A DNA stretch of 64,000 bases, taken from NCBI GenBank assembly GCA_036611895.1, contig GCA_036611895.1_4766.1; one strand, given 5' to 3'. The translations under genes were made by a program, and so were the position numbers. The notes under the pieces are model-generated. The model ran no database searches, had not been told where the DNA came from, and saw only the letters and a list, made by a program, of their open reading frames with translations. Positions 1,134 to 55,600 of the stretch are shown here, in pieces. How positions within the stretch are numbered: the first letter of the stretch is position 1; the number at the start of each line of letters is the position of its first letter. This stretch comes from a phage.

Positions 1134-3709
1134 GCGAATGCCTTTTGAATTATTTGATGAACTTCTTCTGGGGTAGCGTGATTTGGAATTTCAATCTCGT
1201 TAGCCCACGTTGGGTAAAACAAGGATAGTTCCCCACCCAAACCAACCTCTGGATGAGCAATATCAGGATGATCTTGCCAGTTAACGGCTTCAACCAAATA
1301 CTTGTTCGTGAACTGCAGGGTATCCATGTTGTCACGAATCATGAAGTACTGAGCATCATGAATATGAATACTAGGACGAATATCTAACCTGAACTCACTG
1401 GCTCTGACTTTACGCATAAACTCCGAACCAGCACGGTTATTCAGTAGACACCAGCTTTGCCCTAAAGCATTACCAGCAGTTCTGCCTTCTGCTTCTGCTT
1501 CATACGGAGTCTTACATGTCCCACGTAATACCTGAGCCAGTAAAGGAGTACGCACTCTCAATCCGAATGCGGCAGTAACATAACCAGTTTTGGCAGCTTC
1601 GTCTAGCTTAGCCTGAACCCACATGTCACTAACTACGTAGAGATCGTGATAACGTTTCTCTGTAGTCTTAGCCTTTTCTTCAGAGAAGCCACAGTTTTTC
1701 ATTAAGCCCATATACGTACCACCATAGGTAAGCAAGAAGGTTGGAGCCTTCGAGTCACTACGCAATGATTTGTACTTATGCTGAATGGAGTTAATGGATT
1801 CTACCGTATCTTCTATGTCTGGCATCTGCTCGCCAAAGTAAGCATATGCACGGAGACTATGCCCATCGTAGCCATCGGTATATACCTTAAGCTTCTGTGG
1901 GTCTTTAGTAGTCAGTGCAGAGATTCTGTCTTCCAGCGAGGCGAAATCCAAGCCGCAAAATATCCAGCCTGGAGGAGCTTCGAAGCATTTCTTAATCTTC
2001 TTGGCATATTTAGAGCCGGATGGAATTGTTTGTAGATTTGGCTCTGAAGCCGATAGCCTACCGGAGACTGTGCCTCCCAGATTGAGGTTACCGAATAGGT
2101 AGTGCCAGCCATCCGGTCCCGGTTGGGCATTCCTGAAAGCTGGTATAAAGCTAGTGATAATCTTATCCACGAGCTTATAGTCGATAAGTGCATTGAGCAG
2201 TTCCTTAACATCTTCACTCTGCGTATGGGTACGCAGTGCTTTAATAGTGTCACCGTCAGTAGCAGGTTGCTTGCTCTTAGTAAGACCAAGAACAGGTAAG
2301 CCAATATAGTCAAATAACAGCTTCTGTAACTGTGGACCAGAGTTAGGATTAAACTCGATATCACAGTCAGCAAGCGTTACCTGCTTCTTCTTCAACTTAG
2401 CATTCTTATCGTCTACCCATTCCTGACGAAGCATCAGGGTGAAATTCTTCATGAGCTTAGACTCACGAATAGTTTTCAGAGCCTGGTTCCTGTCAGTTTC
2501 CATCTCCTTAGCCACTTGGTTAACGGTATCCATATTCATGGGCATACCGGTTAACTGCATCTGGATGATGTCTTCGCAAGCTGGTTTAAAGATGTTGTTG
2601 TAAACATCTAGTTGGTCATCAGCAATGAGAGTATCCCAGTGCTTCTCATAGGTGTACCAAGTACACAAACCATCAATGAGGTTGTAACGTAACAGTTGCT
2701 CATTAGGAATAAGACGAATGTCTTTAATATCATCCTGAGCATAGTTACCAGCATACTCCTGAGCCTGATCTTTCAGACTAAGGTGATTACCAGCACAACT
2801 ATTAGTAGCCAGGTAGGTGATTAACTTAGTACAGTCCCAGTTACGTAGCATGATATCCATGCCATGCAGTAAGCCTTCCGTATCAATCAGATTATCCATG
2901 AATAACTGATAGATAAGCACATACACGTCATAGCTAATGTTGTGATACATCTGACGTTGTGTGTACTTAATGAAGAACTCACGCAGAAGATTTCGAACAA
3001 TATCGTTTCTGTTGATACGCCCATAAGGTGCTTCAGTAGCTCCAGGAATTGGCTCGTAGTCCACATTAAAGGCTATGCCTTGTGTCTTACTCCAACAGAA
3101 TGTAATTGTCCCTATACCGGCGTTATAGTGCTTTAAACCGAATGCTTCAATGTCTATAGCCAGAGGCTTATTCATCTCAAGCAGTTGGTCTAGCCAGGCT
3201 TTAATCTTCTCTGGGGTATCCGGATAGGCTTCAAACTCAATGATTCCCTGACCTGGTTCAGCATACTGTCCACGTATGTGGTTAAGTAATGCATCCATAC
3301 CCTGAGCAATCTTGGATTTTACTACAGGAGGATCATAAAAGACCTGCCTGTAGCTAGGTGCATAGATAACCTTCTGCTTACCCCATACTGAGTCACAAAC
3401 ATAGCCGAGGTTAGCCTCTGCTTTAGCTTCTTTAGTCAGTATTTTGAAGTAATCAGAATCGGTACAGATAATGTATTGAGTCTCTGCATCATCCAGTACT
3501 TGTTGCAACTCCTGCTGTATGAACTCCTTAATCTCCCTTGCAGGAGTCTTCTTCTTGCCTGGGGCAGAATGAAGTTCAATGAAGATGAAATCTTCCATAC
3601 TAAGGTCATTAGGCAGCAGGTAGGTTTTAATCATCTCCTCCCTTCGGATTTGATGACCGAGGATAGCAATAGGATACTTACCCGTATCTTGAGAGGTGAT
3701 GTAACGCAT
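1130..3709 (-). CDS. DNA polymerase, family A (Pol I/T7-like) with 3'-5' exonuclease domain
   Basis: 859 aa. Exo I motif LAIDIEAFGL; pol motif A GLDFASLEDRI, motif B RSDSKAPTFLLTYGG, motif C IHIHDAQYF. Confidence 0.9.
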   Translation of the reverse strand: MRYITSQDTGKYPIAILGHQIRREEMIKTYLLPNDLSMEDFIFIELHSAPGKKKTPAREIKEFIQQELQQVLDDAETQYIICTDSDYFKILTKEAKAEANLGYVCDSVWGKQKVIYAPSYRQVFYDPPVVKSKIAQGMDALLNHIRGQYAEPGQGIIEFEAYPDTPEKIKAWLDQLLEMNKPLAIDIEAFGLKHYNAGIGTITFCWSKTQGIAFNVDYEPIPGATEAPYGRINRNDIVRNLLREFFIKYTQRQMYHNISYDVYVLIYQLFMDNLIDTEGLLHGMDIMLRNWDCTKLITYLATNSCAGNHLSLKDQAQEYAGNYAQDDIKDIRLIPNEQLLRYNLIDGLCTWYTYEKHWDTLIADDQLDVYNNIFKPACEDIIQMQLTGMPMNMDTVNQVAKEMETDRNQALKTIRESKLMKNFTLMLRQEWVDDKNAKLKKKQVTLADCDIEFNPNSGPQLQKLLFDYIGLPVLGLTKSKQPATDGDTIKALRTHTQSEDVKELLNALIDYKLVDKIITSFIPAFRNAQPGPDGWHYLFGNLNLGGTVSGRLSASEPNLQTIPSGSKYAKKIKKCFEAPPGWIFCGLDFASLEDRISALTTKDPQKLKVYTDGYDGHSLRAYAYFGEQMPDIEDTVESINSIQHKYKSLRSDSKAPTFLLTYGGTYMGLMKNCGFSEEKAKTTEKRYHDLYVVSDMWVQAKLDEAAKTGYVTAAFGLRVRTPLLAQVLRGTCKTPYEAEAEGRTAGNALGQSWCLLNNRAGSEFMRKVRASEFRLDIRPSIHIHDAQYFMIRDNMDTLQFTNKYLVEAVNWQDHPDIAHPEVGLGGELSLFYPTWANEIEIPNHATPEEVHQIIQKAFA

Positions 3710-3718
3710 AGCTTTACC

Positions 3719-4249
3719 TTAGAAAATCAGATGGGAAGCTGCATAGTACTCAATAGAGGGAAGAATCTTCTCATACTGCTTTATTGCCATGGGATCACCA
3801 GCAAGTGTCCAGGCTGCTTCACGAGTACGGGGCAGTTCCTTGTACTTACCAGTCTGGTCTTGAGCTACCAGGCACTCAGGCAGAGCATCACGCACATCCT
3901 GATAGGACATACAACCACGAACCAGGCGATATACAGTCTGGTTCACAAGGTGTACTTCCATAATCAGACGACTGGAGGCTTTCAGATACTTGTCCATTGC
4001 AGGCCAAAGTTCTGGATTAAGTGTTAATCGTTCACCGTAGGTTGGAGGTCTCGCAGCATTAGAACGCTGATAGAACTCCCCTTGATAAAGAAATCCAGCC
4101 GATACATCAATACCATTGATACGGTCATTCTTATCAATGATACCGTTTAACACACTATCAATACGAACCAGTTCTGCTAAGAACAGGTGTTTGACTATAT
4201 CGCTGCTATTGGCAACTTGACCAATAGTCGCTGAACCAATCTGAGGCAT
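3719..4249 (-). CDS. hypothetical protein (176 aa)
   Basis: ORF track; fills gap between helicase and polymerase genes on same strand. Confidence 0.5.
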   Translation of the reverse strand: MPQIGSATIGQVANSSDIVKHLFLAELVRIDSVLNGIIDKNDRINGIDVSAGFLYQGEFYQRSNAARPPTYGERLTLNPELWPAMDKYLKASSRLIMEVHLVNQTVYRLVRGCMSYQDVRDALPECLVAQDQTGKYKELPRTREAAWTLAGDPMAIKQYEKILPSIEYYAASHLIF

Positions 4250-11778: not shown

Positions 11779-11983
11779 GAATTTGCTCCAGGTTATGGGC
11801 AGGAATAGGGAAGCATGGATAGTCACCGGTAGGGTCCAGTGTTACTGACACATGCAGTGTATTGGTCATTTGGGTTAACATTTGAGCAGCATTGAAATCA
11901 TCCTGGATACAGGCATATACAATGTCACCCTTCTCACCCTCACACATTACAGGTGTGTCTTTGATACGGTATTTAGCAGGCAT
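11771..11983 (-). CDS. hypothetical protein (70 aa)
   Basis: ORF track; coupled to downstream gene. Confidence 0.4.
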   Translation of the reverse strand: MPAKYRIKDTPVMCEGEKGDIVYACIQDDFNAAQMLTQMTNTLHVSVTLDPTGDYPCFPIPAHNLEQIHD

Positions 11984-11992
11984 ATTGTTTCC

Positions 11993-12247
11993 TTATTTTT
12001 TACTGATAATGGGGTTTTTGTAATTCCAGGCTCTACTAAGTTTTTCCAACTTAAATCCTGCATACCCTGCTTCTTTAGACAGGATTTCTTCCGCAGTGTC
12101 TATTGCGTTAATTTTGCATAAACGCCCATCTATACAGATATTTTTAAAACTGCCTGTGGATTCTCTGTATATTCCATTGGAATCTTTCTCCAACATAGTT
12201 GCATACCAACTTGCCATAAGTCCTCCTGGGACAGTAATTGAAACCAA
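11993..12247 (-). CDS. hypothetical protein (84 aa)
   Basis: ORF track; preceded by hairpin terminator of upstream gene. Confidence 0.4.
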   Translation of the reverse strand: MVSITVPGGLMASWYATMLEKDSNGIYRESTGSFKNICIDGRLCKINAIDTAEEILSKEAGYAGFKLEKLSRAWNYKNPIISKK

Positions 12248-12276
12248 AAAAAGACCTCCCGGAGGAGGTCTTAGGT

Positions 12277-12513
12277 TTACTTACTATTTTCTTCAATGAA
12301 GCGTCTCATACGTTCTTTTGCTTCATCATGCTCTTTAATAGCTACATAGTCTCGTGCATAGTAATATGCACACCATAAGCCAATATCACATGCAGAGAAG
12401 CGAGCCGCTACGAAGAACATCTCTTCCAGGCTCTGAGCATTGTGTAATGAAAATACAAATTCCAGAACCAGGATGATACTTACAATCATTGCTTGGATAG
12501 CTAGTTTTTTCAT
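12277..12513 (-). CDS. small membrane protein (78 aa)
   Basis: Hydrophobic segment LAIQAMIVSIILVLEFVFSL; 4-nt overlap with ThyX-like gene. Confidence 0.45.
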   Translation of the reverse strand: MKKLAIQAMIVSIILVLEFVFSLHNAQSLEEMFFVAARFSACDIGLWCAYYYARDYVAIKEHDEAKERMRRFIEENSK

Positions 12514-13454
12514 TCAGTAATAGTCTCACCTGGGATTAGCTTACGGAATTGGATAAAGTGAAGCAGGTTACCTGAGTACAGATTCCCCTCTTTATCCATG
12601 GAGGTAACACCTTGTTCCCAGGTAACTGGGTTCATATTATTCACGTACTTCTCACCAAGGTTCATAGGGGTAGCCTGATGTTCTGTTGGGGAAGCATGAA
12701 TAGGTTGGTTTTCCACTAATTTAGCAAATAAGCCAAGGTCTTCTTCGATAGTAGAAGGTCGTCCTTCAAAATTGTTATAGGAAGCACGAGCACAACGTGC
12801 AGCACTTACTTTAAGAAGTAGTCCATGCACTTCTGCATCACTTGGTTCATCGCGTGTAATTCGATTACGTTTGCAGAAATTGTAAGCCCCAACACGGTCA
12901 ATATGAGCAATGTACGGCATATGCCATTGTCCATATGGTAATGCTCTTGGTGTACTTTCTTCATGTGCCTTACGCATTGCTTGAGCCAGTTCACGAATTT
13001 CTGGTTGAGCATCTTTGTGGTCACGCAATCCATAGAAATTAGCCCAGCTTGTTGAAGTTACCACTACACGAATATGTGTGAATGGTTCCAGAATACGGTT
13101 AACAATCTGCTTATGTACTTGCCCACGACGTAGCTGTTCAGCATACACAGCAGCAGCAGATGCAGCGTTATCCCAGATAAATTTGGCATCCTCAATCTCC
13201 ATAGGAGTGAGTTCTTCCTCTGCCTGCATACCTTTCTGGTTCTTGCCCCAGTGACTTGGCATCACTGGTTCATTACGAACCTGTTCGATGAACTTAGAGG
13301 TAGGAATAGCACGACTGCTTGAAGCATTGCGGTTAAATACACGGTGGGTCATAAACTCACTGTGAATGAATCGGGGATAAACCAATTCAAAGGTTGTGAT
13401 ACGAGTTCCTGTTTCTGGATGAACGGAATCTGCAATTACTGATGCCTTAATCAT
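12510..13454 (-). CDS. ThyX-like flavin-dependent thymidylate synthase family protein (diverged signature)
   Basis: 314 aa. EFMTHRVFNRNASSSRA resembles ThyX RHR...S.RY motif but reads THR/SRA; downstream YGLRDHKDAQPEIRE resembles ThyX HAQ.EIR region. Confidence 0.5.
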   Translation of the reverse strand: MIKASVIADSVHPETGTRITTFELVYPRFIHSEFMTHRVFNRNASSSRAIPTSKFIEQVRNEPVMPSHWGKNQKGMQAEEELTPMEIEDAKFIWDNAASAAAVYAEQLRRGQVHKQIVNRILEPFTHIRVVVTSTSWANFYGLRDHKDAQPEIRELAQAMRKAHEESTPRALPYGQWHMPYIAHIDRVGAYNFCKRNRITRDEPSDAEVHGLLLKVSAARCARASYNNFEGRPSTIEEDLGLFAKLVENQPIHASPTEHQATPMNLGEKYVNNMNPVTWEQGVTSMDKEGNLYSGNLLHFIQFRKLIPGETITE

Positions 13455-13897
13455 TAGAATGACCTTAGATAGTTGGTGATACCACTTCTCGTCTCTGTGA
13501 TTCTCTTAACCTGAACATATACCAGCTTAAACTCACTACGAGGTAGTTCTTGTAATACTGCTACACCTTCAGTAAGAGCCACAGAACACGCTACAGCGGT
13601 TTCTTCTTTAAAGGAGTACAAGTCTTCATACATGAGGGCTTCATACTCTTTACGTAGCATACAGAGAGCATTTCTTGCCTTATCACTTACTTCTCGTGAA
13701 CCAGCAGACATAGCTAAGCTGTATATGATAAAGACTTGTTCAAAAACAAAGTCCAGTAATCTATCAGGATTGTTAGTCCCCATGAATAATTTTGTTATGT
13801 AGGAACGAGCTTTACGGTTGAGTTCATACTCATCCTCTATGCCTTTATTATACAGAACAGGATTTCGTTCCCTTTTTCTTAAGAATGGGATACGCAT
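13454..13897 (-). CDS. hypothetical protein (147 aa)
   Basis: ORF track; 1-nt overlaps with both neighbours. Confidence 0.5.
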   Translation of the reverse strand: MRIPFLRKRERNPVLYNKGIEDEYELNRKARSYITKLFMGTNNPDRLLDFVFEQVFIIYSLAMSAGSREVSDKARNALCMLRKEYEALMYEDLYSFKEETAVACSVALTEGVAVLQELPRSEFKLVYVQVKRITETRSGITNYLRSF

Positions 13898-14277
13898 TAG
13901 TATTTACTACCTCTTCTATACCAGGGGTAGTGATGGGTAGTACTTTTGCCTTTGAACACGTCCTTAGTACGGGGGTTCTTTTGTATTTGAGCCAGATAAA
14001 GTTGTGTGTCATCCCCACATGGATTAAGCCAGAACTTATCTATGATTCGGTCTACCTTAGATTTCAGATGAGGTTCTGGGGGAATATATGAAGGAAAAGG
14101 TCTGCTAGTAGTCCATCCTTTTTGAACAAGAACCTGCATTGTTGTGTAAAGATCTAATACATTTTCATTCTCCACTTGGTCATGGATAGTTTTACCCAAA
14201 GTGAGCATTGCAGTTTGTTCTAGCTTACTTAAGTCCAGCCCATACAAGATAGACTTACCATTTCGTCTGTTTGACAT
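13897..14277 (-). CDS. hypothetical protein (126 aa)
   Basis: ORF track. Confidence 0.5.
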   Translation of the reverse strand: MSNRRNGKSILYGLDLSKLEQTAMLTLGKTIHDQVENENVLDLYTTMQVLVQKGWTTSRPFPSYIPPEPHLKSKVDRIIDKFWLNPCGDDTQLYLAQIQKNPRTKDVFKGKSTTHHYPWYRRGSKY

Positions 14278-14394
14278 AAGAGTACCTATAATTAAAAAAG
14301 CCCACGGGTTAGGTGGGCTTGGGTTAGGAGATGGATAAGCAATGAGCTGGAAGCAACTTCCACAAGCACCACTATATAATGATGCTTAGGTTAG

Positions 14395-14673
14395 TTACTC
14401 TGCTTTACTGCCACCATTGGTTTGAACAACAGTTACATTTGTAACCTGGTTCTGACCTTTGTTGGACAGTGCCCAAATCAGTGCTACTACCCAGAATACC
14501 AGTGACCAGCCTAATACGATATTAAGCACACCAATGCCCCACTTAGAGGCATGGCCTCGTGCAAAAGCAATGATAGTAGGGATAAGGTATACAGCTAATA
14601 CAAATAACAGAACAAGGATTGCTGCTAAAGATTCCATGATGGTTCCTATGTGGGGTTGAGTTAGTTTCTTCAC
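14395..14673 (-). CDS. superinfection immunity (Imm-like) inner-membrane protein
   Basis: 92 aa, two TM helices; YLIPTIIAFARGH...NIVLGWSLVFWVVALIWAL matches the motif of the superinfection immunity protein family as I recall it. Confidence 0.55.
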   Translation of the reverse strand: MKKLTQPHIGTIMESLAAILVLLFVLAVYLIPTIIAFARGHASKWGIGVLNIVLGWSLVFWVVALIWALSNKGQNQVTNVTVVQTNGGSKAE

Positions 14674-14710
14674 AAATAGCCCAACAGTGCTGGGCTATTT
14701 AGGCAGCTAC

Positions 14711-14920
14711 TTACTCAGCATCTTTGCTTGCAGGAGCAAGGGCTTTCTTCAGGTAATTACGTACTGAACGATAGGTTTCTTTGGTATCCAAAGTACCATC
14801 ATTTACAAACGAAATACGCGCGCAATCAGACTGCGGAATCTGTTGCACTGCAATCACATTTGCAGCATTAATGGTTAAACGTACATCTGAGGTTGCATGG
14901 GTTACTTGAAATACTGACAT
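14711..14920 (-). CDS. hypothetical protein (69 aa)
   Basis: ORF track. Confidence 0.35.
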   Translation of the reverse strand: MSVFQVTHATSDVRLTINAANVIAVQQIPQSDCARISFVNDGTLDTKETYRSVRNYLKKALAPASKDAE

Positions 14921-14929
14921 GAGTTTTCC

Positions 14930-15436
14930 TTATTTGCTGCTTCTTGCAGCTACTGGTTTGTTTTCCTGGTTCTGATACTTACCATTGTAATTAGCAGGTT
15001 CTTGAACCAGATGAAATAATACTTGAGCTATCCCAGCACCAGCCGGGATATGCAATTTCTTACGACCATGATAGACCAATTCAAGGGTGAGATACCCTTT
15101 CCATCCTGGTTCTATTACGGTATTGAACACTGATAATGCACGTCTTGCCCATGTAGACTTATCGTGAACTATAGCTACGCAGGACGGGGACATGTTGAAC
15201 TTCTCAATTGCTGAAGCCAATGTGAATTTACCGAAATGGCGTGATACTTGATTTCCATCAACAACCTTCACCATTGGAATCAATCCAAATAAGCGATAGA
15301 AGGTAATATCTTGTTTGATACGAATATCATAACCAGCTTCACCCAATCCATAGCTTACACCGTGTTCAGATATCTTACGGTCTGGGACATCCAGCAACTG
15401 GGATGAACGATATAGAGAATTACCATTAACAACCAT
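14930..15436 (-). CDS. dcd: dCTP deaminase / dUTPase-fold enzyme
   Basis: 168 aa. GLGEAGYDIR, AIVHDKSTWARRALSVFNTVIEPGWKGYLTLEL and IPAGAGIAQ resemble dCTP deaminase/dUTPase motifs. Confidence 0.7.
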   Translation of the reverse strand: MVVNGNSLYRSSQLLDVPDRKISEHGVSYGLGEAGYDIRIKQDITFYRLFGLIPMVKVVDGNQVSRHFGKFTLASAIEKFNMSPSCVAIVHDKSTWARRALSVFNTVIEPGWKGYLTLELVYHGRKKLHIPAGAGIAQVLFHLVQEPANYNGKYQNQENKPVAARSSK

Positions 15437-16611
15437 TATTTCATTCCTTTAGGGATATGAACTACCTCCCCAAAAGGTACGGTAGCATTGGGATTATTCA
15501 GAACACACCAGATGATTGGAATATCAAATGGCAATTCTTCCATTGGACGAACATACATATCGGAGAATATGATTGCAGCGGTTGGCTTATTCTTAATAAT
15601 CCAATCTCGTACAGGCACAAGGCTTGTACCACCACGACCTGTAATCTTAATCTCTTCAAAAGTATCTTCTTCAGTGATGTCTATCTCTTCTTGAATAATA
15701 TCGTCGAAAGTAATTAAGGACATCTTCTTAGGGTTGAACTGGCTTTTAACGTAGGCAACCTCTGAGTTAAAACGCAGAGAGTCAGCACTACTAATAGAAC
15801 CAGATACATCCTCAAAGTAGGCTAAGTGACGTAGGCGTCCTTCATCATCTTCCAGGGAAGGTAGATAAATATCAGTGTAACGACGGTTAGGTCTGGCCCA
15901 CGTATAGTGTGTGTCATCAATGTCGGTAAAGAAGTTCATGAGAACTTCCTGCCAAGGAACCACTGGTTTAAGGAATTGGGTAATGACCTCTTCCATACGA
16001 CCAGCACCCTTACCGGGCATCTGTCCACCAGCCATCTTCTGGCTCTGCATTGCACGTACTACGTTGTTGACTACAGCACCCTGGGACTGTCCCGAAGTGG
16101 GGGATTTCATGTCGCCAGCAAGACCTGCTCCAGCACCCCCTGACGGCTTCTGCCTTTTCTGAGGGTTCTTCATCAGGTCATCGTAGATGTCTTCTTCGAC
16201 CCATCCTTTATATTGCGGGTCTTTGCAAATGCCTTCATCAATGCCAGTGAACTTGTAGCCATCTTCTTCTAACTGAAGGTTAATGAAGTGGTCACAAGCC
16301 TGGTTCCATACTTCTGGGTCACGGCTTCCACGACGGATGTCATGTAGATATGCTACATGCCATAGTTCATGCATTAATACTGTTTCTCTTGCATCTGGAC
16401 ACATCCAGATAAAGAAATCAGGATTGAAATGGAGTTCTATCCCATCAGTACATGCAGTGGGACAATCCTCACGTTTCCATGAGAATTTAAGACTACACAG
16501 TAATGAACCAAAGAACGCAGCAGACTTGCCCAGAAAGGCTTGGGCCTGAATACGGTCATACTCACGCATGAGTTGTTCATCACTAAGTGTGTGCTGAGGA
16601 AATTGGTTCAT
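15436..16611 (-). CDS. vWA-like domain protein with HExxH metallopeptidase-like motif (partner of AAA+ ATPase)
   Basis: 391 aa. HELWH motif in N-terminal half; C-terminal vWA-like segment; 8-nt from upstream AAA+ gene. Confidence 0.55.
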   Translation of the reverse strand: MNQFPQHTLSDEQLMREYDRIQAQAFLGKSAAFFGSLLCSLKFSWKREDCPTACTDGIELHFNPDFFIWMCPDARETVLMHELWHVAYLHDIRRGSRDPEVWNQACDHFINLQLEEDGYKFTGIDEGICKDPQYKGWVEEDIYDDLMKNPQKRQKPSGGAGAGLAGDMKSPTSGQSQGAVVNNVVRAMQSQKMAGGQMPGKGAGRMEEVITQFLKPVVPWQEVLMNFFTDIDDTHYTWARPNRRYTDIYLPSLEDDEGRLRHLAYFEDVSGSISSADSLRFNSEVAYVKSQFNPKKMSLITFDDIIQEEIDITEEDTFEEIKITGRGGTSLVPVRDWIIKNKPTAAIIFSDMYVRPMEELPFDIPIIWCVLNNPNATVPFGEVVHIPKGMK

Positions 16612-16618
16612 GTTGTGA

Positions 16619-17671
16619 TTATCCGTGAATGTAACGAGAGATGTTAGCAGCAGCCTTACGCCATTCAGGGGTAGCCTGAAGTTCTGGTAATGCTCTGCCT
16701 ACTGTACGGAAGTACAGAATCTTATGGGTGAACGTTTTAAAGCGTTCAATGTACTGAAGAACTTCAGCGAAATTCTCTTCAGTAGTTTTGTTAGCCAGAT
16801 GGTTAACGGTAGCCCAGCACAGGTTGTTATCTTCCGGTAATGCACAGCCCAGTGGGTCTTTGACTACCTTCTCAATCGTAATGATACGATTATATACCTG
16901 AGTAAACTGAACAAATTCTGTAGCTTTACCGGCAGTAACGTGTCCTGCATAGTAGATAGAATCTTCATCAGGCAGAGCACCTTCTGGTAGGTTCTTGAGG
17001 TCTTTATTAACAAAGTCCCAGGTACGTGGACAACAGAAAGTTTTGTTCTTATGTGCTGGGTCGAAGTCATGCAGGTAACCAGGGTTAGCATGTAAGAATG
17101 CAACCAGACGTTCATCCCATTGTTGGGGAATCATTACATCTTCAACAAAGATGTCGAAGTTAAGTTCCATCTCAAAGTGAACCACACGAGACTGCATTGC
17201 AGTACCCAGAGGATTAACAATGGCACGGTCAGTAGCTTTGTTACCAGCACAGACAATCATCACATTAGGATGAAGTTTTTTCTGACCAGTCATACGGTCT
17301 AGAATTAGTTTGTATGCAGCAGCTACCACTTCTTTCTTAGCTGAGTTGAACTCATCAAGGAACAGGAGCCAGCCATTATAACCTTCGGGTACTTCGTCTC
17401 CCTCAATGGGAAATAAGTCAGCGAATGGTATAAACTCTGCACGGTCACCATTACGGAATGGCAAACCAGACAGGTCTTCCGGGGCAGAAGTAGACAGACG
17501 ATGGTCTATCAGTTTCATACCAAATTCTTCTGCAATAGAACGAATGATTGCAGATTTACCCATGCCTGGTGATGAAGTTAGGAATGGTACGTTACCTGCT
17601 TTCAAAGCACGGATAATAAAGTTACGAGCTTGACGTGAATTACATACGGTCAAGGAGTCAATGCTTGCCAT
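16619..17671 (-). CDS. AAA+ ATPase (MoxR-like)
   Basis: 350 aa. Walker A SPGMGKS, Walker B LLFLDEFN. Confidence 0.8.
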   Translation of the reverse strand: MASIDSLTVCNSRQARNFIIRALKAGNVPFLTSSPGMGKSAIIRSIAEEFGMKLIDHRLSTSAPEDLSGLPFRNGDRAEFIPFADLFPIEGDEVPEGYNGWLLFLDEFNSAKKEVVAAAYKLILDRMTGQKKLHPNVMIVCAGNKATDRAIVNPLGTAMQSRVVHFEMELNFDIFVEDVMIPQQWDERLVAFLHANPGYLHDFDPAHKNKTFCCPRTWDFVNKDLKNLPEGALPDEDSIYYAGHVTAGKATEFVQFTQVYNRIITIEKVVKDPLGCALPEDNNLCWATVNHLANKTTEENFAEVLQYIERFKTFTHKILYFRTVGRALPELQATPEWRKAAANISRYIHG

Positions 17672-17705
17672 TTACTTACTCTCCTAAAGCTAATGGAATT
17701 ACTAA

Positions 17706-18032
17706 TTAAGATTTAATACATGGGTATGCTGTATCAATCGCCAACAGAACCATGTCTGATGGCACTTTTATTGCATTAACCTTTCGGTCATACAGAATAA
17801 TAGTGGCTACCTTGTCAAAGACATTTCCTAACTTCAAATGCTCTGGTACGCAGTTTTTTCCTGCTTCTACGCCCATAGTAACCATGCCCATGAAATAACC
17901 CTGGTTCACAAAGTTTGCATTATTGGCTTTGTAGTCGGCAGCAGCATCCAACAAGGTTTCACGGCTAGATGCTTGGGCATTGAATGACAGAACAGATAAA
18001 GCTACTACAGCAACAGCAATTAAAGTTTTCAT
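17706..18032 (-). CDS. secreted (signal-peptide) protein
   Basis: 108 aa. N-terminus MKTLIAVAVVALSVLSFNAQA has n/h/c signal-peptide organisation with AQA-S cleavage-like site. Confidence 0.5.
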   Translation of the reverse strand: MKTLIAVAVVALSVLSFNAQASSRETLLDAAADYKANNANFVNQGYFMGMVTMGVEAGKNCVPEHLKLGNVFDKVATIILYDRKVNAIKVPSDMVLLAIDTAYPCIKS

Positions 18033-18218
18033 TTAGTTACCTTTTAATTGGTTTAGTTGAAGTACACCGATAGGGGTTAATGACCACCCAAGACCAGCAT
18101 TGAACTGTACTAAGCCCAGCTTCTTAAGAGACTGTGCGGTTTTGTTATTACGGTTGCTGGTGGCAGAACCACCTTGAACCATACGAAGGAATATTGCTTG
18201 GGACTGGGTTAATTTCAC
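18033..18218 (-). CDS. hypothetical protein (61 aa)
   Basis: ORF track; abuts neighbours. Confidence 0.35.
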   Translation of the reverse strand: MKLTQSQAIFLRMVQGGSATSNRNNKTAQSLKKLGLVQFNAGLGWSLTPIGVLQLNQLKGN

Positions 18219-18475
18219 TCATCTTCTCCTTCATCTGGGAGTGGTGATAAATCTACACCTAAATGCTCAAAGCGTTTTTCTAAGACAGCAATCCTCTTTT
18301 GATAAAATGACAGCAGTTCAGGAAGTATTCTTGTACGAGCTTGTGGTCCTAAATCCGTACCATTGAATGATACTTTCACCATATGTGGTGACTTCTTCAA
18401 ACTAGCTAATTGCTGTCGGTTGTCGTTGTATTCTTCATACAGTTTTTCAACCAAACGTAGATTATGAATATTCAT
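18215..18475 (-). CDS. hypothetical protein (86 aa)
   Basis: ORF track; 4-nt overlaps both sides. Confidence 0.4.
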   Translation of the reverse strand: MNIHNLRLVEKLYEEYNDNRQQLASLKKSPHMVKVSFNGTDLGPQARTRILPELLSFYQKRIAVLEKRFEHLGVDLSPLPDEGEDE

Positions 18476-18660
18476 TTCTTCTCCGGTACGAACTGCATTA
18501 CACAGTTTTGATTACGAGGGATATTAAGTTCACATTCATGTTTGAGGGTTTGTGTTACAGAGTTTGGAGTAGAACCAAAGTAGGTATTAGATATAGCTAC
18601 AAATCCTGCACCTATTAAACCACCTAGCAAGAATGAGAAGAATGCAATCTCTTTATACAT
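18472..18660 (-). CDS. small membrane protein (start adjusted to internal ATG with GGAG RBS)
   Basis: ORF track 18472..18693; internal Met MYKEIAFFSFLLGGLIGAGFVAI preceded by GGAGCCAGGAA. Confidence 0.4.
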   Translation of the reverse strand: MYKEIAFFSFLLGGLIGAGFVAISNTYFGSTPNSVTQTLKHECELNIPRNQNCVMQFVPEKK

Positions 18661-18721
18661 TTCCTGGCTCCAGATGTAGAAAACCCCAGTCAATGCTGGG
18701 GTTTATCTATCAGTTTATACT

Positions 18722-18982
18722 TTATAGACCGTGTGGTCGGCATAGACTACCTGAACCAAAGGAACGATGTCCAAGTCGGCCCAGGATTAGGTTGCTTACT
18801 TCAGCAGCAGCACGACTGAATGCTTTAAAGTCAAAGACTACGATACCAAAGAGTGGGGCTGCGATAGCAGCTACCATGATTGGCGTCAGGTCAACCAGTG
18901 ACATACCCAAGATTAAGTGAGCAGCGTAGGCAATAATACCCATTCCAACACCACAACCATATCCAATAGCAATTTTACGCAT
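18722..18982 (-). CDS. small membrane protein (86 aa, two hydrophobic segments)
   Basis: GMGIIAYAAHLILGM and IMVAAIAAPLFGIVVF hydrophobic stretches. Confidence 0.45.
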   Translation of the reverse strand: MRKIAIGYGCGVGMGIIAYAAHLILGMSLVDLTPIMVAAIAAPLFGIVVFDFKAFSRAAAEVSNLILGRLGHRSFGSGSLCRPHGL

Positions 18983-19049
18983 AGTTACCTTCTTAGTTAG
19001 TAGATTGATACATATTCATATAACAGACAAACAATAGTCAAAAAAAGAC

Positions 19050-19078
19050 CTCCCTTCAATAGGGAGGTCAAGCTTGGG
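19050..19078 (-). terminator. intrinsic terminator after decoration-protein gene
   Basis: gacctccc-ttcaata-gggaggtc hairpin preceded on plus strand by a7 (U-run after hairpin on minus strand). Confidence 0.5.
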
Positions 19079-19119
19079 AGTTTTATTTCAGGGTTTATAA
19101 CCCCAAACAAAGGATACCC

Positions 19120-19953
19120 TTATTCTGCAACAGTAACAGGGATGGTTACATCGACAGTACCATTGGTAACTACTACAGAAGTAGCATCACCAGCAGCAAC
19201 TGGTTTAACCGTCAGTACGTTACCAGCAATGGTAGCTGTAGCACGACCGGATTCTGGAGCAGTCTTGATAGACAAAGTACCGACAGATGAGCCAACAGGC
19301 ATAGCAACAATCGTTACGTTCTTACCATCAGTAGTATCAGCAGCAACAGACAGAGCCAGTGAAGCTGGAGTAGCTACCAATGAGCTTGCTTCGTAGTAGC
19401 CTACAGCCAGCAGCGACTCATCTTCTACAGTGGTTCCATTAGCATCGGTAACAATCACTTTGTAAGTACCAGCAGAAGCAGCTGTTACGCCATTAAGAGA
19501 CAATGTTGCAGTAGCAGCGGATTCATTCTCACCTGAATCAATATCAGCGAATGCTGCACCAGCAGTATTAGTTTTGAATTGCCATTTATAAGTAAATGGT
19601 GCTTTACCACCTGCTACATCAACATGCCAGTTAATATCCTCACCTTCGATAGCAGAGACTACACGAGGCAGTTTGGTAGCAATAGTCAGTCGTGGAGTAG
19701 CCTTCATCTCAATAGAGATAGCCTGCATATCCACGATGTTGTTAGGCCAGAAGCCTTCTTCAGCAGGGTTTTTGGCAGAGCGTTTATACAGCAGATCACG
19801 AACACCATGAAAGATAACTAAGCTATCTGGATAAGTGGCATCTGGATGTACAAAGGTTCCTACTTCTACGGAACCACCTGGGATAGAGCCATTGGCATCC
19901 AGTACAGTTGCAACATTAGTGGTTTTGTTAAAACCTACTTTTAAAGTTGGCAT
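19120..19953 (-). CDS. capsid decoration protein-like, Ig-like (Big-type) domains
   Basis: Start moved to internal ATG with AGGAAA RBS (MPTLKVGF...). Ig-like repeats (TYKVIVTDANGTT, VTNGTVDVTIPVTV); position just downstream of RNAP II genes matches N4 gp17 synteny as recalled. Confidence 0.55.
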   Translation of the reverse strand: MPTLKVGFNKTTNVATVLDANGSIPGGSVEVGTFVHPDATYPDSLVIFHGVRDLLYKRSAKNPAEEGFWPNNIVDMQAISIEMKATPRLTIATKLPRVVSAIEGEDINWHVDVAGGKAPFTYKWQFKTNTAGAAFADIDSGENESAATATLSLNGVTAASAGTYKVIVTDANGTTVEDESLLAVGYYEASSLVATPASLALSVAADTTDGKNVTIVAMPVGSSVGTLSIKTAPESGRATATIAGNVLTVKPVAAGDATSVVVTNGTVDVTIPVTVAE

Positions 19954-20027
19954 ATCAATTTCCTCATAAGTAAATAGCAGAGTTAGTATACATGACAGAT
20001 AAAAAAATAAACCCTCCGTTAAGAGGG

Positions 20028-20210
20028 TTAGTTGTTTACACAGTAGATAGCAAAAGCTATCCATCCTGCTATTACAAAGCAGCCTAGTGAGTATGCTCCA
20101 TAGTAGTAATAAGCAAACTTAGACTTGTGGGCATGGACTATCGTAGACAGAACCAGTACAGATAAAACTATCAGTATTAGCTGAAAGATTACTTCAAAAG
20201 GGATTAGCAT
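20028..20210 (-). CDS. small membrane protein (start adjusted to internal ATG with GGAGGT RBS)
   Basis: ORF track 20028..20243; MLIPFEVIFQLILIVLSVLVL hydrophobic helix. Confidence 0.4.
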   Translation of the reverse strand: MLIPFEVIFQLILIVLSVLVLSTIVHAHKSKFAYYYYGAYSLGCFVIAGWIAFAIYCVNN

Positions 20211-20235
20211 AGTTGTTACCTCCAAGCAAAAAATA

Positions 20236-20262
20236 TGCCTCACTCCCGAAGGAATGAGGCTA
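20236..20262 (-). terminator. intrinsic terminator-like hairpin after RNAP II large-subunit gene
   Basis: gcctca...tgaggc stem preceded on plus strand by caaaaaat. Confidence 0.4.
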
Positions 20263-20267
20263 GTTTA

Positions 20268-21485
20268 TTAACTTAATGCATAGTCTGTTTCAAGAATGTC
20301 CTGCCAGAGGCTGTCATCCAGCTTACCAGCAGAGAACTCTTGTCCCAGTACCTGAGACAGGATGAAGCCTAGCAGGTCACTCTTAGCAATGTCAGACAGA
20401 ATCTGATTGTACTGACGACGTAGGTCATTACCGTAGTTAGGATGGCAACGGAAGCAGTCATGTACAGTCATTACAGGGAATGGTTTCTTAGGCATAGTGT
20501 CAATCATATCTGCTACTACCTGATGGTCTACATAAGCAATAGTGCATGGGTCAAGATAATCCAGGATTGATACGGATAGGAAGCCAGATTTCTCATAATG
20601 GCTCCACAGCTCCTGTACTTTCTCCAGATTGCCTGCAATCTCCCCATATTCTGATGGACCATCCTCACAGAGTTCTCGCACAGCTTCCACTAAGTCACGG
20701 TCGAAGTTACAACGACGCAGCATCTCACGCACCACCATCCCATCAATAGAGTGGGTGATGTTAGCAGAGAGCATACGAGTCTTCTCTTCTGTGCCCTGAA
20801 CCATACGAGTGATGTCGAATGGCTTACCTAAGAAGTTAACAGTCTGTACTTCAGGAATCATGACCTTAATGACAGCGTGGAAGTTGTCAGGCAGTACCCA
20901 TACGTAACGGTTGGCATCTGGATTACCACATTGCAGTAAGAACTTGTTAAGTGCCCAAGGACCACTAGCAACAGTTTCCATTACATTCTCAAAAGTCTTG
21001 AGACGAATACCTTCACCGAATACTTCTTTAGGCTTGGCTTCTGAGCCGTAGAATGCAGTCATAACTGCCTGCTTAGTGTCACTACGTTTAATACGAGATG
21101 CTTCACCAAGGATGTCCAGCATCTTGTGATAGATAACTGTATAGGCATCACGACGTAATGGCTTACCATTCTCTCCCATGTAGTTAACTACGTTACACAG
21201 TTCAGCAGCAGAACGGTCACCAGTCAGGCAAGCCAGTAACTGCAATCCGGATGATGTAGCATCCAGGGCTACGGCATAACCAATAGGCTTACCTGCTTTC
21301 ATATCTTTCCATGCATTTATACCTGCAAAGAACAGAGCAGAATCTTCAGCTTCATCTACCAGATTAAGCAGGTTAGCTTCGTTCTCATCGAACCAGGAGA
21401 TACGCTCATCCCATGTCTTTTTATCTAAGCCATAGTTATTAGCAATATCTACTTTCAGGTATTCACGAGCGGTTAACAGTTGCAT
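20268..21485 (-). CDS. phage RNA polymerase II, catalytic (C-terminal-type) subunit, T7-like single-subunit RNAP fold
   Basis: 405 aa. ALDATSSGLQ resembles T7 motif A (DGSCSGIQ); RSDTKQAVMTAFYGS resembles motif B with K-to-Y spacing of 8; MTVHDCF resembles motif C. RBS AAGGAA upstream. Confidence 0.85.
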   Translation of the reverse strand: MQLLTAREYLKVDIANNYGLDKKTWDERISWFDENEANLLNLVDEAEDSALFFAGINAWKDMKAGKPIGYAVALDATSSGLQLLACLTGDRSAAELCNVVNYMGENGKPLRRDAYTVIYHKMLDILGEASRIKRSDTKQAVMTAFYGSEAKPKEVFGEGIRLKTFENVMETVASGPWALNKFLLQCGNPDANRYVWVLPDNFHAVIKVMIPEVQTVNFLGKPFDITRMVQGTEEKTRMLSANITHSIDGMVVREMLRRCNFDRDLVEAVRELCEDGPSEYGEIAGNLEKVQELWSHYEKSGFLSVSILDYLDPCTIAYVDHQVVADMIDTMPKKPFPVMTVHDCFRCHPNYGNDLRRQYNQILSDIAKSDLLGFILSQVLGQEFSAGKLDDSLWQDILETDYALS

Positions 21486-21539
21486 TTTATGTTCCTTTTG
21501 CTTCTTGGCTCTCCACTATGGAGAGCCTGCTTATTGGAT

Positions 21540-21656
21540 TTATTTACGTTTACGTTTACGTTTGGCCTCTGCCTCACGTTTGAGAGCTTCGTTAATACGC
21601 TTTAACACTAGTTCTCTGTGAGCATAGAAGTCAGCTACTGCACGATGATTAATCAT
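21540..21656 (-). CDS. candidate 38-aa highly basic micro-protein (C-terminal KRKRKRK)
   Basis: Hand translation MINHRAVADFYAHRELVLKRINEALKREAEAKRKRKRK; ATG overlaps stop of upstream RNAP II small-subunit gene (ATGATTAA). Below ORF-track size cutoff. Confidence 0.3.
   Translation of the reverse strand: MINHRAVADFYAHRELVLKRINEALKREAEAKRKRKRK
21543..21563. repeat. (ACGTTT)3 perfect tandem hexamer repeat
   Basis: tttacgtttacgtttacgttt read directly; encodes the KRKRKR tail of the micro-ORF on the minus strand. Confidence 0.8.
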
Positions 21657-22467
21657 TGTTTACTAGCTCCTTATCAGCGAACTCCAGTACAGCTTTGTTG
21701 TAGCTGGTTCCCTGATAGTTGATGTGGTAGCCGCAGGCATATGTACGCCCACGTTTGTCATACTTGTGAGCCAGTGAGAAGTTATTACCTTCTTTGGTTA
21801 CTAACTCCATTACTTCCTTAGCTGTACGGCTGTACTTCTCAAAGGCTTTAACACGTTTCTCATAGTCCTGACGGGTTTCACCCTCTTTGGGTTTATCCAT
21901 GTTAGGACGAGAGTCTTTTACATAGTTAGCAACGTCCCAGTTAATACAGAGACGTTGGTTATTCATACGGTTGATGTGGTCAAGACAGACATCCATCTCA
22001 TGATGGTTCTTCTTGAGGATGATGCTACCTCTGCTTTCATAGTAACCAGTATCACGATTACACAGAACAGGCTTAGGAGCACTTACGATAGGCAATGGAT
22101 ACTGGAATGCTTCCAGTTCCATCTGAACATCTTCACTAATCTCATAGATAACACCGAACTTGTCGATGGTAGGGTCATAGTTGAAGCAGTCATTCTCTGC
22201 CATCTTATATAGGCAGTCAGCGATGTACTGAGCATCATCTGAGTGACTCATGAGAGAGCCAATCATAGTTTGGATGTCAGCACGTTTATGTAAGGCAATC
22301 TGCACCATTGCATCAATGAGCAGCTTATAATCAATTTCTAAATAGGCAGCGAATGCCTTAAAGTCAATTTCTTCGGAGTCCTCGAATTCCTTCCTCATGC
22401 GAGGGAGTAATTGATTCTTGTTGAAAAGGATTTCAAGTCGCTTCTGATGTTCAATAGATGAGTACAT
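21649..22467 (-). CDS. phage RNA polymerase II, N-terminal-type subunit
   Basis: 272 aa. KYDKRGRTYACGYHINYQG resembles the T7 RNAP DxRGR region; directly upstream of the catalytic subunit. Confidence 0.7.
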   Translation of the reverse strand: MYSSIEHQKRLEILFNKNQLLPRMRKEFEDSEEIDFKAFAAYLEIDYKLLIDAMVQIALHKRADIQTMIGSLMSHSDDAQYIADCLYKMAENDCFNYDPTIDKFGVIYEISEDVQMELEAFQYPLPIVSAPKPVLCNRDTGYYESRGSIILKKNHHEMDVCLDHINRMNNQRLCINWDVANYVKDSRPNMDKPKEGETRQDYEKRVKAFEKYSRTAKEVMELVTKEGNNFSLAHKYDKRGRTYACGYHINYQGTSYNKAVLEFADKELVNND

Positions 22468-22494
22468 CGCTTATTCTCCTAAATATGATTAATA

Positions 22495-22520
22495 ACCAAA
22501 AGCTGCGGAGCAGCTATTAC
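22495..22520 (-). promoter_or_regulatory. vRNAP-type hairpin promoter candidate (P-d), 45 nt upstream of RNAP II gene
   Basis: agctgc-gga-gcagct: 6-bp stem, GGA loop, same architecture as the three hairpins at 26.98-28.16 kb; preceded by aaccaaa. Confidence 0.45.
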
Positions 22521-22781
22521 CTAACGCTTAGTCCAAAAGGTAATACGAATACTGTTTTCATTACCGATGTAGTCGATGCGTACATGCAGACCATTACCAT
22601 TAAACTCATTACTTTTCTTCTGATAAGGCCAGACTAGGCTAGTCATAGGTATTTTGATGAAACCAGATATGTGGCCTAGCTTAGTACGACTCTTTAATTC
22701 ATTTTGTAATGCACAATAGATGTCGTGCCGTGTGAGTGCTCTGGCTCTGACTTGAGCAGACCATAATTCTTCATATGTCAT
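22521..22781 (-). CDS. hypothetical protein (86 aa)
   Basis: ORF track. Confidence 0.4.
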   Translation of the reverse strand: MTYEELWSAQVRARALTRHDIYCALQNELKSRTKLGHISGFIKIPMTSLVWPYQKKSNEFNGNGLHVRIDYIGNENSIRITFWTKR

Positions 22782-52606: not shown

Positions 52607-55600
52607 TTGAACAGGAATCATGCTATGTCAACATTTGACCGTCTGGCAGGTTTCGCAGACAGCATCACTACTGCTAAGCAAGTCGATGTCTCTACTGCAA
52701 CCTCTCGGAAACAAGCTGAACAAGGGCAAAGCCCTTTCCAATTAACTCCTCAGAATGCCTACCAATTACAGGCAGGACGTGCCGGTGACTTAGGTGCTGG
52801 TGCATTTGAACCAGGTTCTATTCAGGCAGATTTTACTAATGCCTCCCCCCTTGAAATCGTAAACAAGTATGGCAATGAGCAAGGAATGGACATTCTCAAT
52901 GCTCGTGTCAATGCAGCTAATTCTGTTCGTCGTGATTTAACTAAGAGTCGTACTTATGGTGAAGCACTTGGTGATACCCTTTCTGGTGTTGGTCTTGGTG
53001 TTGCTAATACCCTTGGGGGCATTGCTGCTCTTGGCACAGGTTTGGTCAATGATAATGCCGGGGCAACCATTGCTTCCAGTCTTGACTGGTTGAATAAAGG
53101 TGTACACAACCTACAGTCTGATGCACTGAATGCTCGCCGTAATGTAGTACAGAACCAGAACGTAATATCTGCACAGGAAAATGAGAAACAGTATAAGCAG
53201 GATATTGCTGAAGGAGAAAGTGAACTCGTTGCTTCCTTGTCTCGCATTGGTCGTGATGCTTACGATTCTGTCGCTAACACTTTGTCTAATGGCATGGCTG
53301 CTACAGATGGTCTGGCTGAGGGTGTTGGTTCACTGTTTACTGGTGGTCCACTTATCCGTGGTGTATCTGCACTAGGTAAGGTAATGGTAGGTGGTGATAA
53401 AGCTGTTAAGGGCATTACCTTAGCTGCTGAATTAGGTTCACGTCCTGCACGAATTGCACAGTCTGCTGGTCGTGTTGCTGCACCTGCTATAGCAATTGGT
53501 GGTATGGAAGCTGGTGGTGCATACCAACAGACTGCTAATGAAATTATGGAAATGCCATTCAGTGAACTGGCTGCTAAATCTCCTGTATACCAACAGCATA
53601 TTAAAGACGGTTTATCTACTGAAGAAGCACGACGTCAGACTGCATCTGAAACAGGTATCACTGCTGCTGGTTTAACTGCTCCAGTTGCTGCTCTTACTGC
53701 TCCACTGGTATCCAAGTTTGAACTTAATCCACTTAAGGTAGGTTCACTGGCTGGTGCTGGTTCTAACATGCTGCGAGAGACTGTAGAAGAAGGTATTCAG
53801 TCTGGTACAAGTCAGTTTGCACAGAACAAGGCAATCCAAGGTAATGTTGATGCATCTCGTGACATCCTCAAAGGTGTAGGCGAACAAACTGGTCTTGGTG
53901 CATTGTATGGCTTTGGTTCTGCTGGAGTTGCTCAAGCTCCTGGTGCAACTGTTAAGGCTGCTGGTGCTGCCGTTGGTCCTGCTGTACGTACTACCCTGGC
54001 TGGTGCTTCTCTGGCTGGTAAGGCATTAGCAAAAGTAGCTTCTCCTATTACTAACATCCTGGTTCAACGTGGGGAAGAAGTTGCTAAGCGTAATGAACAA
54101 GCATCCCCTGTATCTGATGCTACGGTTAACGCTGCTGCACAGGAAGCTACTGCTCAGGCAGAACAAGCACAAGCAACTGTACAGGAAGCAGTAGATGCAA
54201 TGGATATTTCTCCAGAAGAGAAAGCTGCTGCTACTCAGTATGCTGCTGACTTAACTCAGGTAATGAAGTTTGATCCAGTAGAACTGGAACAAGCTAGTCC
54301 AGTAGTCCGTGAAGCTGTTTCTGGTTCCACTAACCGTGTTGAAGCTATTCAGAAGATGGCTGACCTGGTTAATACTGCTGAAGACCCTAACGTTCAAATG
54401 GAAGCTGCAATCCAGATGTATGACAACATTATGTCTATGGATAGCTTCATTAACCGTGATCCAGGTGCATTAGCTAATCTGGAACAGGGTTCTCCTGCTG
54501 CTAATATTGTTGATCAGTTCTCCGGTCTGATGGCTAATGTACAGAATACACCGAAGGTACTCCGTGCATTCCGTGCCATTCATTCCATGATTCAGGAACA
54601 GGCAGAAGCAGGTAAACTGAAAGCTACTGAAGAAGCTAACCAAGCCCAAGCAAACAACATTGCTATGGCTGCTGATATGTCTCCAGAAGTGCTGGACGCA
54701 GATTCAGTGAACATGGTTCTGAAACATGCAAGTGAAGGTAAGATTACATTGGGGAATCGTCAGCGTGCTGCCCTGCAATCTGCTGCTGCTCTATTGCAAG
54801 GAGCACGGGAATTTGACGCTAAAGCAGAAGAACTAGGCTTACGTCCTCAAGACATTGTTAGTAAACAGATTAAAACCGACGAATCTCGTTCTAATGAAGG
54901 TCAGTACTCTGCGTTGCAACATGCTAAACGCATTCGTTCTGCGTACAACTCTGGTAACTTCGATTTGGCTTCCGCTTATCTCGACGACTTTATGAAGTTC
55001 GCCCAGCACATGCAGAATAAGGTCGGAGCGTTGAATGAGCATCTGATTTCTGGGAATGCGGATAAGAATAAGTCTGTCCATTATCAGGCTCTTACTCCCT
55101 CGCGTGAATGGGTACGTAGTCGTACTGGCCTCGGTGTCAATCCGTATGATACCAAGTCTGTTAAGTTTGCCCAACAAGTAGGACTGGAAGCCAAGACCGT
55201 AGCTGATATTGCTAACGCACTTGCTACGGCTTACCCGGAGCTTAATGTTTCTCATGTGAAAGTTACCCCATTGGATTCACGTCTGGACAAGCCTGCTGCC
55301 CAGGTAGTTAAAGAGTTCCGTCAGGGCAATCTTGATGCTGCTCAATCCCAACAGACCAATGAACCAGTGAATCAGGTTGATGAAACTCCTGTTACAAAAC
55401 AGGAACCAGTTACCCCTACTGTACAGACTAAACCCTCTGTTAGTGAAGCTGTTAAAACAGAACCCACTATTAAAGAGTCTAAACCACAGGCTGTAAAAGA
55501 ACCTGAGAATCAGTCTGAATCTTCTATCCCAGCTGGGCCTGAAATGAAGACTGCTGAGTTCACCGGTAAACAGCAAGCCTCATATATGCAGTTAGGTCAG

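Follow-up and report, generated by a model that had tools for sequence, protein, structure and literature searches.

Only two enzymatic solutions to thymidylate synthesis are known, and ThyX, the flavin-dependent thymidylate synthase (FDTS), is one of them. The enzyme is a target for antibacterial drugs. Its mechanism was established with a small number of colinear enzymes, whose R78, Y91 and R165 (Thermotoga maritima numbering) count as core residues. Canonical ThyX (T. maritima TM0449, Mycobacterium tuberculosis Rv2754c, Helicobacter pylori, PBCV-1 A674R; PF02511, TIGR02170) is the closest described system to the gene analyzed here, which encodes a ThyX-like protein of 314 aa at positions 12510–13454 on the minus strand of a 64,000-nucleotide stretch of phage DNA (hereafter the window; GenBank assembly GCA_036611895.1, contig GCA_036611895.1_4766.1). 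Open reading frame (ORF) prediction and profile matches define this coding sequence as a putative permuted FDTS. We estimate at roughly 75% the probability that the protein is a functional FDTS belonging to a large, sequence-permuted branch of ThyX.

Comparison with known systems

Unlike canonical ThyX, the phage protein has a permuted chain, in which the N-terminal helical module is found at aa 198–262. It further differs by the replacements R78T, E86A, Y91A, N163T, R165T and H178D, and by an added WGxNQxGMQ loop, a WHxPY segment and a conserved C-terminal tail. A second relative, the UMP/dUMP methylase PolB of polyoxin biosynthesis (Streptomyces cacaoi, PDB entry 4p5a), is colinear with canonical ThyX, whereas the phage protein is permuted, shares 19% identity with PolB and is encoded outside any biosynthetic-cluster context. 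Finally, the dCMP hydroxymethylase gp42 of T4 and the dUMP hydroxymethylase of SPO1-type phages are likewise phage-encoded relatives of thymidylate synthase. In phages with 5-hydroxymethyldeoxyuridine (5-hmdU) in their DNA, such hydroxymethylases come with dCTP deaminase and dUTPase activity, and a dCTP deaminase is also encoded here. However, they have the ThyA fold, which is unrelated to that of the ThyX-like protein, and neither ThyA similarity nor recognised downstream modification genes were found in the phage window.

Family assignment and altered signature

The initial annotation, made by eye from the sequence, had described ThyX-like blocks in the protein, and profile searches bear this out. 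Pfam Thy1 (PF02511) matches with E = 2.3e-13 and 50.8 bits (cutoff 24.8), covering residues 21–169 on positions 60–190 of the 191-position profile only, and phrog_85, labelled "thymidylate synthase", matches with 389 bits. As a single sequence, the protein matches solved ThyX chains weakly (E = 0.03). It was assigned the three-dimensional fold of ThyX and has no sequence or fold likeness to ThyA. At about 65–100 aa more than the solved ThyX chains (216–258 aa), its length agrees with the earlier figure of about 80 extra residues. The catalytic core, as delimited by Pfam Thy1 positions 60–190 and HMMER, comprises aa 19–174 (12933–13400, minus strand) and corresponds approximately to T. maritima ThyX residues 60–205, which include beta3, the RHR helix, the SxRY element, R147 and the LR174 helix.

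Within this core, the altered signature THRVFNRNASSSRA (13308–13349, minus strand) encodes T36-H37-R38-V-F-N-R-N-A-S-S46-S47-R48-A49, and thus has the form T-H-R-X7-S-S-R-A instead of R-H-R-X7-S-x-R-Y. The HMMER profile alignment to T. maritima ThyX pairs T36 with R78, H37 with H79, R38 with R80, S46 with S88, R48 with R90 and A49 with Y91. It therefore gives the same reading as the initial annotation, in which RHR appeared as THR and the S.RY element as SSSRA; a shift in that by-eye alignment can be rejected, since the profile alignments reproduce the pairs T36/R78 and A49/Y91. Relative to the ThyX signature RHR-X7-S (Myllykallio 2002, as applied in PMC2826268), the phage protein reads THR-X7-S and departs from it by a single deviation, the change of the first arginine to threonine. 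Stern et al. tolerate two or fewer deviations in this signature, a range that includes THR-X7-S.

Permuted chain order

The canonical N-terminal ThyX module (aaRvSy...HxSPfEH, T. maritima residues 20–59) was found at residues 217–259 of the phage protein, behind the catalytic core. As a whole, the relocated module spans aa 198–262 (12669–12863, minus strand) and corresponds to the canonical N-terminal helices (T. maritima ~12–69) in HMMER alignments of both native-order and reordered sequences. It includes the stretch SAARCARASY, equivalent to T. maritima S22–F31, and the motif HASPTEH (12678–12698, minus strand), equivalent to H53–H59, in which H253, E258 and H259 align with H53, E58 and H59.

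A native-order profile of 60 family sequences, searched against PDB sequences, matched T. maritima ThyX in two stretches that are swapped: profile positions 93–171 aligned with chain positions 133–213, and positions 200–262 with chain positions 24–81, which are native residues 12–69 once a 12-residue tag is subtracted. Because the two stretches align in swapped order, SAARCARASY...HASPTEH near the C-terminus is homologous to SAVRAARVSF...HETPFEH at the N-terminus of canonical ThyX. When aa 175–259 were placed ahead of aa 19–174 in silico, the Pfam Thy1 match rose to 62.4 bits in one stretch over profile positions 13–190, compared with 50.8 bits over positions 60–190 for the native chain. A profile of 20 family members rearranged in the same way was colinear with T. 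maritima ThyX in two stretches (E = 1.1e-10), and aligned in one stretch each with Thermus thermophilus Thy1 (16–206 against 29–209) and with PolB (12–207 against 24–226). The canonical segment order, with the H53 module before the RHR core, is not that of the native chain, and colinearity appears only after in-silico reordering. By these alignments, the ThyX-like family is a sequence-permuted branch of ThyX, in which the front block appears to have moved to the back of the chain.

The N-terminus of the phage protein keeps a beta-hairpin (E3–11, E18–27), the second strand of which aligns with canonical beta3. The beginning of beta3 is also matched by a short strand (HQATP) behind HASPTEH. Since two strands both align with this element, we favour a tandem duplication followed by partial deletion as the probable origin of the permutation. 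The last 140 aa were also considered as an unrelated extra domain; this was rejected, as they have no PDB-sequence or Pfam match when searched alone, but align to the N-terminal part of ThyX in the family profile. Literature searches returned no description of a permuted ThyX.

Active-site residues

An HMM search with active-site mapping showed that the altered residues pointed out in the initial annotation are real, and that many canonical residues are kept (phage protein = T. maritima, HMMER alignment): S225 = S30, H253 = H53, S255 = T55, E258 = E58, H259 = H59, H37 = H79, R38 = R80, N43 = N85, S46 = S88, R48 = R90, R120 = R147, N139 = N169, L143 = L173 and R144 = R174. Eight positions are replaced throughout the family, namely R78 by T36, E86 by A44, Y91 by A49, N163 by T133, R165 by T135, H178 by D148, R143 by K115 and E144 by Q116. 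Thus, among the dUMP contacts, S88, R90, R147 and R174 are retained and R78 is threonine; among the flavin contacts, H53, E58, H79, R80, N85 and N169 are retained, R165 is threonine and H178 is aspartate. The tyrosine lid (Y91 in T. maritima, Y108 in M. tuberculosis) is missing, its position being occupied by A49, which is alanine in 99% of the aligned members.

These replacements are not trivial, because the positions R78, Y91 and R165 are given key roles in a review of the enzyme (PMC6514825). According to this source, the first arginine of RHR forms hydrogen bonds with the isoalloxazine ring and dUMP, the tyrosine covers uracil C5 and flavin N5 like a lid, and R190 of the M. tuberculosis enzyme (R165 in T. 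maritima) binds the phosphate region of the flavin.

The family also has invariant residues of its own: K115, together with G75 and M76 in the WGxNQxGMQ loop, H178 and P180 in the WHxPY segment, and Q302 and R304 in the tail. The loop and the residues H178, P180, Q302 and R304 have no aligned canonical ThyX position. In the phage protein, the loop reads WGKNQKGMQ (aa 69–77; 13224–13250, minus strand); conservation analysis defined it as family-specific, it falls outside the HMMER-aligned stretches of T. maritima ThyX, and it is shared by cellular homologues. The C-terminal tail (aa 263–314; 12513–12668, minus strand), defined in the same way, has a variable middle and a conserved end, SGNFxGWIQxRK, which contains Q302 and R304, and no counterpart of it was aligned in canonical ThyX. 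From this pattern, we infer that K115, the WGxNQxGMQ loop, H178, Q302 and R304 may stand in for the missing R78, Y91 and R165.

The same pattern bears on whether the enzyme might carry out the same net conversion of dUMP to dTMP with the cofactor handled otherwise, by a changed binding of the ADP part of the flavin, by another flavin or by another reductant. The replacements R78T, R165T, N163T and H178D cluster on the flavin phosphate/AMP and isoalloxazine contacts, and the family-own invariant K115, H178, Q302, R304 and GMQ loop point in this direction as well. However, H79, R80, N85, N169, H53 and E58 are all retained, and altered cofactor handling is deduced purely from sequence; we consider it unlikely.

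Family size, conservation and inteins

At 50% identity, the proteins retrieved by an exhaustive HMMER search fall into 5,247 clusters, of which 2,855 have E ≤ 1e-30. tblastn found the family in 1,035 phage records, and every annotated one reads thymidylate synthase. Phage carriers include N4-like phages of many hosts, Pseudomonas phages of the KPP10/PAK_P1 type, Vibrio phage ICP1, rV5-like coliphages (at about 42% identity), Caulobacter phiCbK-like phages, Stenotrophomonas phage Moby and Cellulophaga phiST. Among 228 members with the motif pattern (out of 269 retrieved proteins), THR is present in 227 and SSRA in 223, and 60 sequences of 41–70% identity share 22 invariant columns, with H253 and E258 among them. 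The deviations are fixed across a huge family and reflect neither a shifted alignment nor gene decay, and the invariant columns indicate strong purifying selection. The divergence first noticed in a single protein is a widespread, family-wide permuted architecture with a rewired active site.

Several relatives are interrupted by inteins at at least three independent sites, all within catalytic motifs: directly after R38 of THR, between H31 and S32 ahead of E33, and directly after H253 of HASPxEH. Inteins prefer conserved functional sites of DNA-metabolism enzymes. Those found here carry either HNH (proteins P0130, P0136 and P0189) or LAGLIDADG endonucleases (P0183, P0229, P0220, P0231 and P0264), and they account for the extra length of the long family members, which had been considered as informative domain fusions and were rejected as such.

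One copy, 81% identical to the phage protein, is encoded on JANQNF010000027.1, a 69,347-bp contig deposited as "MAG: archaeon isolate PL23a_bin.95". This contig is almost certainly an N4-like phage genome misbinned into an archaeal metagenome-assembled genome.

Gene neighbourhoods in other phages and in bacteria

In unrelated phages, the gene lies close to other genes of nucleotide metabolism. Ruegeria phage V12 encodes a dCMP deaminase two genes upstream of it, Pseudomonas phage KPP10 has NrdA/B immediately downstream, and in Vibrio phage ICP1 nrdA is 3 kb away.

Cellular loci were collected with a pattern scan, using one genome per species and a 20-sequence alignment. The scan gave 118 matches, some of which are plainly prophage or mis-binned phage. 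In fifteen loci from Verrucomicrobiota/Kiritimatiellia/Opitutia, the gene keeps a conserved chromosomal setting, and most of these loci have a conserved ORF next to it, downstream on the same strand. In the locus that was scanned (L065), this ORF is a class II ribonucleotide reductase (RNR) starting 76 nt downstream. Loci of the Verrucomicrobiota type are flanked by non-phage genes, such as those for a glycosyl hydrolase, an epimerase and an outer-membrane protein. A further nine loci, from Luteitalea/Vicinamibacteraceae, lie near genes for peptide deformylase (def), a DeoC-family aldolase, phytoene synthase and desaturase, and an HhH-GPD glycosylase. The cellular copies share the THR, SSSRA, GMQ and HxSPxEH motifs. 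A gene fixed in the chromosome next to RNR matches what would be expected of a housekeeping thymidylate synthase.

These data also speak to the idea that the protein is a ThyX relic that has lost catalysis and serves in structure or regulation, as might be suspected from its score below the equivalog cutoff and from the loss of several canonical residues. Since the active-site motifs are invariant over thousands of clusters, inteins are located in these very motifs, the gene is the only thymidylate-synthase-like one in the window and chromosomal synteny is conserved in bacteria, a relic of this kind is scarcely credible.

Predicted role in dTMP synthesis

In the 64-kb window, tblastn found no ThyA, canonical (colinear) ThyX, dihydrofolate reductase (DHFR) or Dut/dUTPase, and the phage thus has no other dTMP route of its own there. 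The phage dCTP deaminase would convert dCTP to dUTP, and host Dut, on which the phage would rely because no dUTPase was found in the window, would yield dUMP. The ThyX-like enzyme is predicted to convert dUMP to dTMP with methylene-tetrahydrofolate and reduced flavin, without a need for DHFR, and would probably assemble into a homotetramer. The pathway would shift the pyrimidine pool toward T. The window has a G+C content of 42.7%, lower than that of E. coli (about 51%), so that the conversion of dCTP to dTTP makes sense for this phage. Ordinary dTMP synthesis is also supported by gene context, both by the dC deaminases or RNR that neighbour the gene in unrelated phages and by the bacterial synteny.

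Four points weigh against a function as thymidylate synthase. The NCBIfam thyX equivalog TIGR02170 gives 53.3 bits, below its cutoff of 87.9. Central canonical residues (the first RHR arginine, the tyrosine lid, R165, H178 and E86) are replaced across the family. In literature searches, no family member turned up that had been tested biochemically or genetically. Finally, the resistance of Gamaleyavirus and N4 to restriction-modification (RM) systems has no known genome-protection mechanism (PMC11990801).

The last point leads to base modification, which the initial annotation had set beside an ordinary dTMP route. The permuted enzyme could carry out a different C5 chemistry or take another substrate, and so feed base modification in N4-like phages, either by hydrating the exocyclic methylene intermediate, which would yield 5-hydroxymethyl-dUMP, or by acting on another pyrimidine nucleotide, as PolB does on UMP. 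N4, AlfredRasser and the Gamaleyavirus RudolfBernhard are reported to be largely RM-resistant (PMC11990801, PMC8594841), and nothing identified in the window accounts for this resistance in N4/Gamaleyavirus. However, the resistance of N4 to the type II systems tested was put down by the BASEL authors to absent EcoRI and EcoRV sites (PMC8594841), and the same ThyX-like family occurs in rV5-like phages, which belong to the Vequintavirinae, a group described as "exceptionally susceptible" to RM (PMC8594841). The same motifs are moreover found in chromosomal, syntenic bacterial genes beside RNR, the uracil-contacting R90 and R174 are retained, and known dUMP/dCMP hydroxymethylases have the ThyA fold and not the ThyX fold. 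Genes for a 5-hmdU kinase, a glycosyl- or aminotransferase or an aGPT-Pplase-like protein are absent from the annotation of the first 50 kb of the record of phage HK2, a close relative. A scan of 20 window ORFs gave no match to hypermodification genes, with incomplete coverage because many small ORFs have no detectable family. Of the two routes, the ordinary one is thus the likely one, and we regard a role in modification as improbable. A narrower proposal, that the permuted clade, devoid of the tyrosine lid and the first RHR arginine, releases a C5 product, hydrated or modified in some other way, which then becomes part of the DNA of N4-like phages, is a long shot; if true, it would explain the restriction resistance of N4/Gamaleyavirus, and a ThyX-fold enzyme would for the first time be implicated in the modification of DNA bases.

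With a function in thymidylate synthesis as the favoured reading, the family has consequences for how ThyX is understood and annotated. More than 5,000 clusters appear to keep the ThyX fold despite a rearranged chain and the absence of R78, Y91 and R165, and the gene is apparently chromosomal in some Verrucomicrobiota and Acidobacteriota. If these proteins are active thymidylate synthases, they would reveal what the ThyX active site can do without or have replaced, and surveys based on the RHRX7S motif or on equivalog cutoffs may miss or under-score much of viral thymidylate synthesis. If they are not, thousands of "thymidylate synthase" annotations would be wrong.

Operon and neighbouring genes

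The window derives from a Gamaleyavirus, an N4-like/G7C-type coliphage. A 4-kb stretch around the ThyX-like gene has about 92% nucleotide identity to phages ZQ2, Bp4 and ECBP1, and the protein is 99.4% identical to its counterpart in phage HK2. The region forms a single, densely packed minus-strand operon, in the order AAA ATPase, vWA/metallopeptidase protein, dCTP deaminase, 69-aa ORF, Imm-like protein, 126-aa ORF, 147-aa ORF, ThyX-like gene, 78-aa ORF, more small ORFs and rIIA; all features below are on this strand unless stated otherwise.

The dCTP deaminase (168 aa; 14930–15436) matches PF22769 (E = 8e-16) and phrog_1663 and aligns to the Dcd chains 4dhk and 3km3. Its motifs KSTWARRA and GYLTLE correspond in this alignment to KSTYARCG and GYVTLE of 4dhk, so that the catalytic Ser/Arg and Glu motifs of the DCD domain are present, and it scores 77.6 bits on TIGR02274, under the cutoff of 92.8. 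The gene had been placed two genes away from the ThyX-like gene; its identity holds, but four ORFs of 147, 126, 92 and 69 aa lie in between. Three of these are functionally unassigned, namely the 147-aa ORF (13454–13897; phrog_9867), whose stop overlaps the ThyX-like start (TAATG), the 126-aa ORF (13897–14277; phrog_12812), whose stop overlaps the start of the 147-aa ORF (TAATG), and the 69-aa ORF (14711–14920; phrog_7594). The fourth encodes a 92-aa Imm-like superinfection immunity membrane protein (14395–14673; PF14373, E = 9e-17; phrog_1039), which is thus placed between the two nucleotide-metabolism genes. On the other side, the start of the unassigned 78-aa ORF (12277–12513; phrog_12633) overlaps the ThyX-like stop (ATGA). 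In total, stop and start codons overlap at four junctions (TAATG three times, ATGA once; within 12277–14277 and 14930–16611), an arrangement suggestive of translational coupling, on the one hand among the 126-aa, 147-aa, ThyX-like and 78-aa ORFs and on the other between the vWA protein and the dCTP deaminase.

An ORF of 136–147 aa directly upstream of the permuted thyX recurs in four unrelated phages: the phage of the window (13454–13897), Ruegeria V12, Pseudomonas KPP10 and Vibrio ICP1 (3541–3969 in locus L082, 4584–4997 in L083 and 4488–4898 in L084). A conserved partner gene of about 140 aa was rejected, as BLAST shows no similarity among the four ORFs; their recurrence may reflect coincidence or remote homology.

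At the upstream end of the operon, Pfam matches identify a DUF2201 metallopeptidase/vWA protein related to N4 gp25 (15436–16611), paired with a MoxR-like AAA ATPase related to N4 gp24 (16619–17671). The vWA protein carries an "HNH endonuclease" label in PHROGs and several GenBank records, for which the Pfam matches give no support. Elsewhere in the window, the giant virion RNA polymerase (3,751 aa; 52607–63862, plus strand) corresponds to positions 11889–22673 of the HK2 record (PP514361.1), in which the name "DNA polymerase" for this ORF is probably a misannotation.

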